A DNA stretch of 64,000 nt from Chiloscyllium plagiosum (lineage: Eukaryota), in contig NC_057757.1 in assembly GCF_004010195.1 (NCBI RefSeq), positions 3,357,851 to 3,421,850 of the forward strand, in the 5' to 3' direction. Every line of letters starts with the position of its first letter. The stretch's first letter is position 1. Positions 27,327 to 28,838 of the stretch are shown here, one piece after another. Below the pieces are notes generated by a model. That model saw only the letters and a program-made list of their open reading frames with translations, was not told the origin of the DNA and did no database searches. A program made the translations under genes and the position numbers.

Positions 27327-28838
27327 ATGGCTTGGCTAACCCACTCACCGGCCGCTGTTGTCTTCGCCCTGACCCTCATGTTGCTCGGCGCTGTCAGAGC
27401 TGGCCCCCTTACAGATGATGGTCACATGGAACACCAGTCCCCGGACAACCTGAAGGAGAGCGGACAGACCCCTCATTACCAGGGCCAGGGGCTGTTCCCA
27501 GAGAACGGGAAAATGCCCGAGGGCGAGGTGGAGCCGCTCAAGAGCCATCAGGTCAGGTCCGCTCCCTCCCAGCCCAAGCCGGAACCCAGTTACGATGACG
27601 AACTGTTTAAGGACGTGGACGCCAAGACCCTGGCGGCCATTTTGCTGCAAGCTTTGAAGGTGGACACAGACCAGCCCAGCACCAGGGAGGAGCCAAGGCA
27701 GCACGATGGAGTGGCACCACCCTCCGCCGACCTCGGGTCACCAGAGGTGGAGGCTAATGACTTGACGGAGAATGTGAAGAGTAGGACCAGAGTGGGAAAG
27801 ACCCAGAGGAGCCCCATCTCACAGGAGAATGAAGAGTCATACTGGAGGAACGGGGAGGACGGAGAAGACTCCCTGACCCCACAGAACATCGACAGGCTGG
27901 AGACAATGCTGCAGGACTTGGAGAGATACAGCGCGACCACAAAAAGGGAGAGGTCCAACACTGCCCAGTTCTCACTAACCAAGGGTGACCAATCAACGGA
28001 AAATGATGTGCTGAGAGACCTGGATGCCTTCGAAGAGCTAGTGGGCAGGAAGGAGAAATACTCTGACTATGAGGAGAGCCAGGAGGACACCCGCGATAGA
28101 GTGAAGTACAGCTCCAAAGCCCCAGAGGTTAGCAGGAGGAAGAGTGGCCAGCAGAGGGCAAAGGATAGAGCATCTGACCTGTTGCTGCAGTACCTACTAA
28201 AGGGGGAGTCCAGCCAGGAGGAAGAGGAGGAGGAGGAGGAGGGGAAGGTGAGAGACAACAGGGGGAAGGTCGGAGGAGACTCAGAGGACAGCGCCTCCCA
28301 GGAGAAGAGGTCAGATGAAGACGAAGATGAGGATGAGGATATCGATCCCCAGACCATCGACAGACTCATCGAGATATCTAGCAAGCTCCATCTGCCCGCC
28401 GACGATGTGATTGACATCATCAATGATGTGGAAAAGAAAAGGAAAGATCCAATGGAGAGGCTAGAGAGCAGATATGGGGCATCATCCCGGGACAGGTACA
28501 AGACCCCAGACAGCAATTACCTTCCCCATCATCGGCCAGAGAAGACCAGACACCATGTCAACAATGAGCTGAGTCTTCAGGATCTCCTGGGTGCTAATAA
28601 TGCTCTAGACTATGACAGCATGGCTTACCCTATCCCCAGGAGGTACCGTCTCAGGCCAAATGGTTACCCCAATTACATTCATCCCAGAATCTCCCAGCCT
28701 CGTTACCGCCCCTATTACTACCAGCCTCCACCCCCAGTTTACCGAAACAAGGAGTACTACGAGGATGAAGCCAATGAGGAAGAGCTGGAGAACTACATTG
28801 AGAAGATCTTGCTCAAGCACCCAGAGGTCTTCCAATAG
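27327..28838 (+). CDS. VGF: Neurosecretory protein VGF (granin-family prohormone), 503 aa, single coding exon
   Basis: ATG in good Kozak context (AGGATGG) follows the splice acceptor TTTTTGCATCCGTAG (AG 27293-27294). N-terminal signal peptide MAWLTHSPAAVVFALTLMLLGAVRA. VGF-type blocks: ELFKDVDAKTLAAILLQAL, LTENVKSRT, ASDLLLQYLL, DPQTIDRLIEISSKLHLPADDV, YPNYIHPR, EEELENYIEKILL. Dibasic sites present. Convergent with AP1S1, as in mammals. Confidence 0.95.
   Translation: MAWLTHSPAAVVFALTLMLLGAVRAGPLTDDGHMEHQSPDNLKESGQTPHYQGQGLFPENGKMPEGEVEPLKSHQVRSAPSQPKPEPSYDDELFKDVDAKTLAAILLQALKVDTDQPSTREEPRQHDGVAPPSADLGSPEVEANDLTENVKSRTRVGKTQRSPISQENEESYWRNGEDGEDSLTPQNIDRLETMLQDLERYSATTKRERSNTAQFSLTKGDQSTENDVLRDLDAFEELVGRKEKYSDYEESQEDTRDRVKYSSKAPEVSRRKSGQQRAKDRASDLLLQYLLKGESSQEEEEEEEEGKVRDNRGKVGGDSEDSASQEKRSDEDEDEDEDIDPQTIDRLIEISSKLHLPADDVIDIINDVEKKRKDPMERLESRYGASSRDRYKTPDSNYLPHHRPEKTRHHVNNELSLQDLLGANNALDYDSMAYPIPRRYRLRPNGYPNYIHPRISQPRYRPYYYQPPPPVYRNKEYYEDEANEEELENYIEKILLKHPEVFQ

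Follow-up and report, generated by a model that had tools for sequence, protein, structure and literature searches.

Secretoneurin homology of a segment in the bamboo-shark VGF precursor, and the kinship of VGF with SCG2

The VGF precursor of the bamboo shark Chiloscyllium plagiosum contains a segment of 31 residues that, judged from sequence profiles, is a true homologue of secretoneurin (SN), the peptide of SCG2. It is such a homologue because the entire VGF gene is a paralogue of SCG2; the homology of the two precursors can, on the comparisons given below, be regarded as close to certain. According to the alignments, the segment diverged early from SN and is still constrained. We consider it fairly probable that it acts as an amphipathic helix in front of a KR cleavage site and is released within a fragment of about 54 residues, whose C-terminal end it forms, and not as a hormone of 31 residues.

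The VGF gene

The window (the whole stretch of DNA analysed, 64,000 nucleotides) holds VGF and, convergent with it, an AP-1 sigma gene. Their features are:

20412-20419 and 20428-20435, palindromic: two CREs, followed at about 20479-20486 by a TATA-like word
20492..20721, minus strand: six tandem RE1/NRSE-like (REST) sites, one about every 42 nt, within exon 1 or immediately ahead of it
20781..20812, plus strand: 3' end of non-coding exon 1, with the donor GT at 20813 (5' start unmapped)
20813..27294, plus strand: GT..AG intron of 6482 nt; contigs X1 and X6 both fit from 27293
27327..28838, plus strand: VGF coding sequence, 503 aa, ORF 27327-28835, entirely in exon 2
46187..55538, minus strand: AP-1 sigma gene (AP1S1-like), best PDB match sigma-1A at 103 bits
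55341-55538, 49715-49834 and 46187-46321, minus strand: the three matched exons of the AP1S1-like gene

The product of the 503-codon ORF is VGF: of 447 matches, the best were named VGF, cartilaginous-fish VGFs matched at 44-95% identity, and the product falls in a 90% cluster together with named VGFs. The two exons, the confinement of the coding sequence to exon 2 and the CRE promoter are those of a VGF orthologue. A two-exon gene with a CRE is also what the partial sources give for mammalian VGF (secretogranin VII), and the mammalian promoter contains a CRE in the partial text of PMC4313783.

The VGF transcript is spliced from two exons. Where contig X1 begins to fit, at 27293, its overhang of 30 nt equals window positions 20781-20810, ahead of the GT; the splice joint rests on this match, with X1 coming from a relative and its RNA status being guessed. 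Raw single-cell reads covered the ORF to a depth of at most 1 (X10) and 0 (X11), which is uninformative.

Four CREs were observed in the window, compared to 0.36 expected, and the pair together with the TATA-like word is likely the VGF promoter. For SCG2, no CRE palindrome was found in the 19.9 kb upstream of the ATG; its first exon may lie at a greater distance. The RE1 consensus had six matches at three or fewer mismatches and none in 100 shuffles; the six copies come just after the two CREs and the TATA-like word. In mouse cells, Vgf goes up upon REST loss (PMC12343973, partial text). On the 3' side of the VGF stop, a direct duplication of about 245 nt at about 29000-29500 is followed by TG/CA microsatellite arrays, and at about 6900-7700 a run of N (an assembly gap) lies within CT-rich simple repeats, the long ORFs of which are artefacts.

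Homology of VGF and SCG2

The VGF protein was divided into the following parts:

27597..27662, plus strand: block 91-112 (LAAILLQAL), a helix that aligns to the 'W..LLL..L.Q' helix of SCG2
27756..27806, plus strand: VGF-specific block 144-160 with K151-S152, equivalent to the human R120-S121 cut; identity 0.72
27843..27848, plus strand: W173-R174, whose lone Arg lines up with that of the KR preceding SN
27849..27941, plus strand: SN-homologous segment, residues 175-205, NGEDGEDSLTPQNIDRLETMLQDLERYSATT, with WR before and KRER after
27879-27938, plus strand: amphipathic helix 185-204, hydrophobic moment 0.50, predicted by AlphaFold
27942..27947, plus strand: KR convertase site K206-R207, homologous to the human K175-R176 that frees NERP-3
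28164..28205, plus strand: DLLLQYL block 280-293 (NERP-2 core), homologous to DLMLQYY of SCG2
28344..28442, plus strand: DPQTIDRLIEISS...KKR block 340-372, the strongest block common to VGF and SCG2
28761..28835, plus strand: C-terminal EEELENYIEKILLKHPEVF block, homologous to 'EELA.YL...L.K.P' of SCG2

The SCG2 set comprised the SCG2 of the same genome (found by a Pfam Granin search; NCBI has the identical protein under the name of a Chiloscyllium bamboo shark) and 27 relatives. In BLASTP, the shark VGF matched its own SCG2 with an E value of 3e-11 (25% identity over 213 aa), beginning at SN. The profile-profile comparison of 30 VGF with 28 SCG2 sequences in hhalign gave a probability of 99.7, with an E value of 2e-26 over 318 columns; this alignment runs from SN to the VGF C-terminus, and SN falls on the 31-mer segment. 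The homology spans about 330 residues. When the SCG2 profile was run against 1.84 billion proteins, 92 matches were obtained, 53 closer to SCG2 and 39 to VGF, and the best VGF had an E value of 1.1e-18. Nine of the 73 unnamed matches were traced: eight come from bony vertebrates, one is without a name, and none of the nine was identified as jawless.

Against the SCG2 profile, the shark VGF scored 69.4 bits in full, 63.9 with the peptide masked, 14.9 with residues 338-372 masked, and 9.2 with both masked. Shuffled controls reached at most 3.8 bits (493 of the 500 shuffles reported), and reversed controls were negative. In the joint alignment, the colinear blocks are LLQAL, the SN helix, DLLLQY, DPQTIDRLIEISS, L.DLL, and EEELENY..K.PEV. 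The helix block 91-112 falls outside the significant HH alignment; the match to the SCG2 profile begins at profile position 113 and residue 104. The N-terminal KALE helix of SCG2 is without a clear VGF counterpart, and VGF terminates at the EEELENYIEKILLKHPEVF block, past which SCG2 continues. The DPQTIDRLIEISS block carries most of the VGF-SCG2 score and is strongly conserved (0.91 for residues 327-372 in cartilaginous fish, invariant in mammals). As the seat of an ancestral function common to both proteins, this block is a stronger candidate than SN. The SCG2 sorting helix presumably lies near the equivalent block.

Protein searches of the shark's own genome, both with a stricter first look that may miss further relatives, yielded SCG2 and this VGF with the SCG2 protein, and VGF alone with the VGF protein. 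An SCG2 cluster came second in the ESM Atlas (0.93). A Pfam search with the VGF protein and the 31-mer returned nothing relevant, and 0/30 VGFs pass the gathering cut-off of the Granin family (PF01271) in the Pfam copy used. In the ESM Atlas (Pfam 38.1), one VGF cluster has 14% of its members tagged with PF01271, which we take as an automatic hint of the link between VGF and SCG2.

Both granin genes have neighbours from three families: AP-1 sigma, the clade E serpins and DAGAT. The AP-1 sigma gene stands tail to tail with VGF (C48, plus strand) at 17 kb and with SCG2 (C13, plus strand) at 22 kb. The C13 sigma exon scored 97 bits to sigma-1A and 88 to sigma-3, and because the best PDB match is sigma-1A and not sigma-3, the name AP1S3 for this gene rests on the partial text of PMC11969067. 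Minus-strand serpins lie 74 kb downstream of VGF and 1.03 Mb downstream of SCG2, with PAI-1/SERPINE1 as the best solved relative of the former and glia-derived nexin/SERPINE2 as the best relative of the latter; both are of clade E, on the same strand, and further downstream than AP-1 sigma. Two of the three chromosomal DAGAT loci are near granins, at 0.41 Mb (VGF) and 0.33 Mb (SCG2), on opposite sides of the two genes. Beside a third AP-1 sigma gene, the 59 kb downstream (C7:117923000-117982400) were searched for a third paralogue, and 0 matches to the SCG2 or VGF profiles were found.

The plain reading of colinear homology together with paired neighbours is a block duplication before the split of sharks and bony fish. 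VGF and SCG2 probably go back to a single granin gene that was duplicated along with the genes around it, presumably in a whole-genome duplication. Teleost scg2a and scg2b offer a parallel, in that a duplicated SCG2 locus adjoins AP-1 sigma and there is a second, diverged SN (SNa, SNb; PMC11969067, partial text). That duplication, however, is a later teleost one, and milkfish scg2b keeps KR on both sides. The VGF/SCG2 duplication is the older, as both genes occur in sharks and bony fish, and VGF is far more diverged from SCG2 than scg2a is from scg2b.

The segment compared with secretoneurin

The initial annotation had singled out, in a VGF, a 31-mer with a single Arg before and KR after it, and this peptide is present at 27849-27941. 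The pattern E..E...TPQ....LE...Q.L that it was said to have in common with SN also stands, with 9/31 ungapped identities to guinea-pig SN and 9/31 to the shark's own SN. A refinement concerns the KRER after the two peptides: in the TPQ register it lines up only with a two-residue gap, since the KR of VGF is at 32-33 and that of the 33-residue mammalian SN at 34-35. In mouse and guinea pig, KRER comes directly after SN, and the KR plus ER on the C-side is a likeness to mouse SN; the shark's own SCG2 is without a dibasic pair there. A dibasic pair at SN positions 31-38 was found in 7/17 cartilaginous-fish SCG2s versus 11/11 of those from bony vertebrates; in sharks, SN may be longer, or may be singly cut.

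The segment resembles the SN of SCG2 (PF01271) in its equivalent position in a homologous precursor, its acidic head, its TPQ helix cap, its L-E-x-x-x-Q/E-x-L helix and an equal hydrophobic moment (0.50 versus 0.51 in the own SN, in the top 1.3% of 18-mers). AlphaFold, given the VGF alignment, predicted a helix at 185-204 with a pLDDT of about 70-80, among separate helices (pTM 0.18). Unlike SN, the segment keeps only TPQ, LE, Q and L of the conserved core YTPQSLA.LES.F.EL, which varies little or not at all among 28 SCG2s; it has a single Arg in place of the N-terminal KR present in 28/28 SCG2s; its N-terminal third is variable; and its KR comes two residues earlier than that of the 33-mer. 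Its 9/31 identities compare with a mean of 24.4/31 among SNs; the mean identity to SN is 9.5 for sharks and rays and 7.4 for mammals. Lungfish SN has TPQNI, the same five residues as the shark VGF segment, and teleost SNs often have TPQN.

That two acidic proteins with amphipathic helices came to look alike by chance or convergence seems to us most improbable. The SN HMM gave 3.4 bits on the single shark peptide, a marginal score equalled by 4/2000 shuffles, and below 0 on mammalian VGFs; these values, along with the 0/30 VGFs matched by Pfam Granin, speak for chance. As proof on single sequences, the SN-only HMM was set aside as too weak to carry the claim. Its best match is this segment in 13/13 cartilaginous-fish VGFs. 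At the family level, however, 37 VGF segments compared to 43 SNs gave an hhalign probability of 96.3 and a score of 35.3, and an independent alignment of the same columns scored 36.6. On the same SN profile, the best of 150 column shuffles reached 15.1, and five other VGF blocks scored 5.4-10.2. Against chance there are also the library-wide E values down to 1e-18 with 92/92 matches SCG2-like or VGF-like, the colinear blocks with their negative shuffled and reversed controls, and the three paired neighbour families. The family-level probability and the whole-protein homology bear out the proposal that the 31-mer is an SN homologue; the paralogy of the two genes as wholes goes beyond what the initial annotation had stated.

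Compared to 10 other cartilaginous fish, the conservation of the 31-mer is 0.55, below the protein mean of 0.59, and 59% of 31-aa windows equal or exceed it. By part, the values are 0.34 for residues 175-182, 0.63 for 183-205, 0.40 and 0.44 for the flanks, and 0.72 for the block 144-160. Residues 183-205 and the KR are well kept and 175-182 are variable, which suggests that the helix and KR are under selection and that the 31-mer as bounded is not.

For comparisons among VGFs, 181 of 190 sequences were used, nine being excluded as fragments or bird or crocodile sequences. TPQ is present in 8/13 cartilaginous fish, 1/8 basal ray-fins and 0/160 others; it is missing in 7/7 VGFs of lungfish, coelacanth, caecilian and salamander, and its Pro survives in 37/42 teleosts. 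The shark segment corresponds to residues 143-174 of the human orthologue, which end at the K175-R176 site of NERP-3; the shark keeps TPQ and the W-Arg in SN register, whereas mammals have neither (0/61). The lack of TPQ that the initial annotation gave for human VGF holds for mammals. Its further suggestion that the peptide eroded in mammals finds no agreement in the data: across 61 mammal-type VGFs the helix is conserved at 0.963 versus a mean of 0.926, the KR is invariant (100%), and TPQ was already lost in the 7/7 lobe-finned and amphibian VGFs. In mammals, the helix and the upstream block are 96-98% conserved, and the middle linker is lowest at 0.855 (0.40 in sharks).

Processing and fate of the segment

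The KR after the helix is present in 162/181 VGFs and in 12/13 cartilaginous fish. In human, R176-Q177 is given as a PC1/3 or PC2 site freeing NERP-3 (PMC8578498, partial text), and mouse VGF 180-209 was observed with a KR flank (PMC9584923 supplement 9, in part; 30/80 places). By analogy, the KR on the C-side of the 31-mer is likely cut in the shark.

A cut on the N-side at R174 is doubtful. Cleavage at a single Arg calls for a helper basic residue at P4, P6 or P8; W-K/R occurs at this site in 6/13 cartilaginous fish, and 0/6 of these have such a residue. Elsewhere, W-K/R is found in 6/7 lungfish, coelacanth, caecilian and salamander sequences, 8/24 squamates, 0/42 teleosts and 0/61 mammals. 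Any Arg within -2..+1 of the SN start is present in 9/13 cartilaginous fish, and together with the 6/7 this makes selection on the N-site possible. W173-R174 itself is likely a vestige of the N-terminal KR site of SN.

With the N-site patchy and the bounded 31-mer not specially conserved, the released SN-like neuropeptide of 31 residues that the initial annotation had envisaged is so far poorly supported. It would require galeomorph sharks to cleave at both R174 and K206-R207, freeing a hormone with SN-type activity, which we judge decidedly improbable. For it speak the exact register of R174 with the N-terminal Arg of SN, the TPQ of 8/13 cartilaginous fish and the conserved C-terminal KR, the KK at 32-33 in chimaera SCG2, and the VGF copy's cleaner C-site, the own SCG2 having no dibasic pair after SN; an SN of 31 residues also exists, zebrafish SNb1-31 (PMC11969067, partial text). 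These points are set against nine identities where SNs average 24.4, first eight residues that vary in sequence and length (0.34), a W-K/R in only 6/13 that has no basic residue at P4, P6 or P8, conservation below the protein mean with 59% of windows as good or better, and the absence of an N-terminal KR that is invariant in 28/28 SCG2s. SN-type activity of the shark 31-mer is unlikely, given its 29% identity to SN and given that spawning is not rescued even by SNb, a paralogue with a far closer resemblance to SNa (PMC11969067, partial text).

In the reading that we prefer, the VGF precursor would be routed into dense-core granules, with cleavage at K206-R207 and, probably, K151, the counterparts of the mammalian sites, and with K151-S152 as the predicted N-terminus of the fragment. 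The amphipathic helix would then end a fragment of about 54 residues, and its likeliest role would be granule packing or presenting the KR. The fragment S152-T205 of the shark and residues 121-174 of baboon are both 54 residues long. In other fish and amphibians, the upstream site is 46-60 residues from the KR (3/21 sequences mis-anchored by the pattern were excluded), and the equivalent of K151 is K, Q or H.

In human CSF, 5/5 rows from the region begin at R-S121, run for 33-42 residues and end in the helix (PMC10080684 supplement 8, in part). Intact VGF 121-174 is absent from the same part of that file, and no row in it reaches A174; this is a weak negative, because NERP-3 is missing from the file too. 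Ten files of mouse peptide tables (the full table excluded), as far as available, contained SN and no row with this segment, the search motifs having been taken from the VGFs of other rodents and not from mouse VGF. In 4/5 files of a zebrafish gut supplement, vgf was found in a gene table only. As intact 121-174 was not seen, the fragment may be clipped or never accumulate. A review, in the part available, gives VGF23-174, detected by ELISA, and none of the peptides named in the partial sources (NERP-2, NERP-3, APPG-152 = VGF23-174) matches this segment.

A further reading is that the longer fragment, S152-T205 in the shark and VGF121-174 in human, or a product clipped from it, is a signal in its own right, with its own receptor and not that of SN. 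Both ends are used in mammals; the length is 54 residues in the shark as in baboon, with 46-60 among the remaining fish and amphibians that were correctly anchored; and the mammalian helix and upstream block are 96-98% conserved. Yet the peptide tables searched did not contain the intact form, conservation is lowest in the middle linker (0.855 in mammals, 0.40 in sharks), and the available peptide-table entries of the review give no activity for it. We consider such a signal unlikely. Somewhat less likely still, in our estimation, is that VGF carries a second SN-family peptide, a 31-mer in galeomorphs and a 54-mer elsewhere (including human VGF121-174), acting via the SN receptor or a sister receptor.

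What the kinship of the two precursors means

Acidity and site of storage are the usual grounds for grouping granins, and VGF and SCG2 tend to be investigated separately; a review reportedly sees little evolutionary link among granins except the chromogranins. No statement of VGF-SCG2 paralogy, or of an SN homologue in VGF, was found in the open literature searched (subscription papers mostly lie outside it), and the motif of the mammalian segment is in no main text of the open-literature papers searched. Both proteins are given as granins in the partial text of PMC4992253. The available parts of PMC8578498, PMC10080684, PMC8311481, PMC4313783, PMC3499383 and PMC12343973 do not state the paralogy, that of PMC12706669 has 0 matches for homology terms, and in that of PMC11969067 VGF occurs in a reference title only. 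The homology has apparently been little noticed.

Through the paralogy, two well-studied neuropeptide precursors, each a CSF biomarker, can be matched residue by residue, and the DPQ...IEIS...L.P.D block stands out as a probable common granule element. The paralogy also makes the conserved, so far unassigned human segment VGF121-174 a sister of secretoneurin. VGF might compensate when scg2 is mutated, or give cross-reactions in assays for SN. If VGF does carry a second SN-family peptide, SN would correspond to VGF 143-174, the post-SN piece to NERP-3, and DLMLQYY to NERP-2, which would give matched VGF/SCG2 ligand pairs for receptor hunting.
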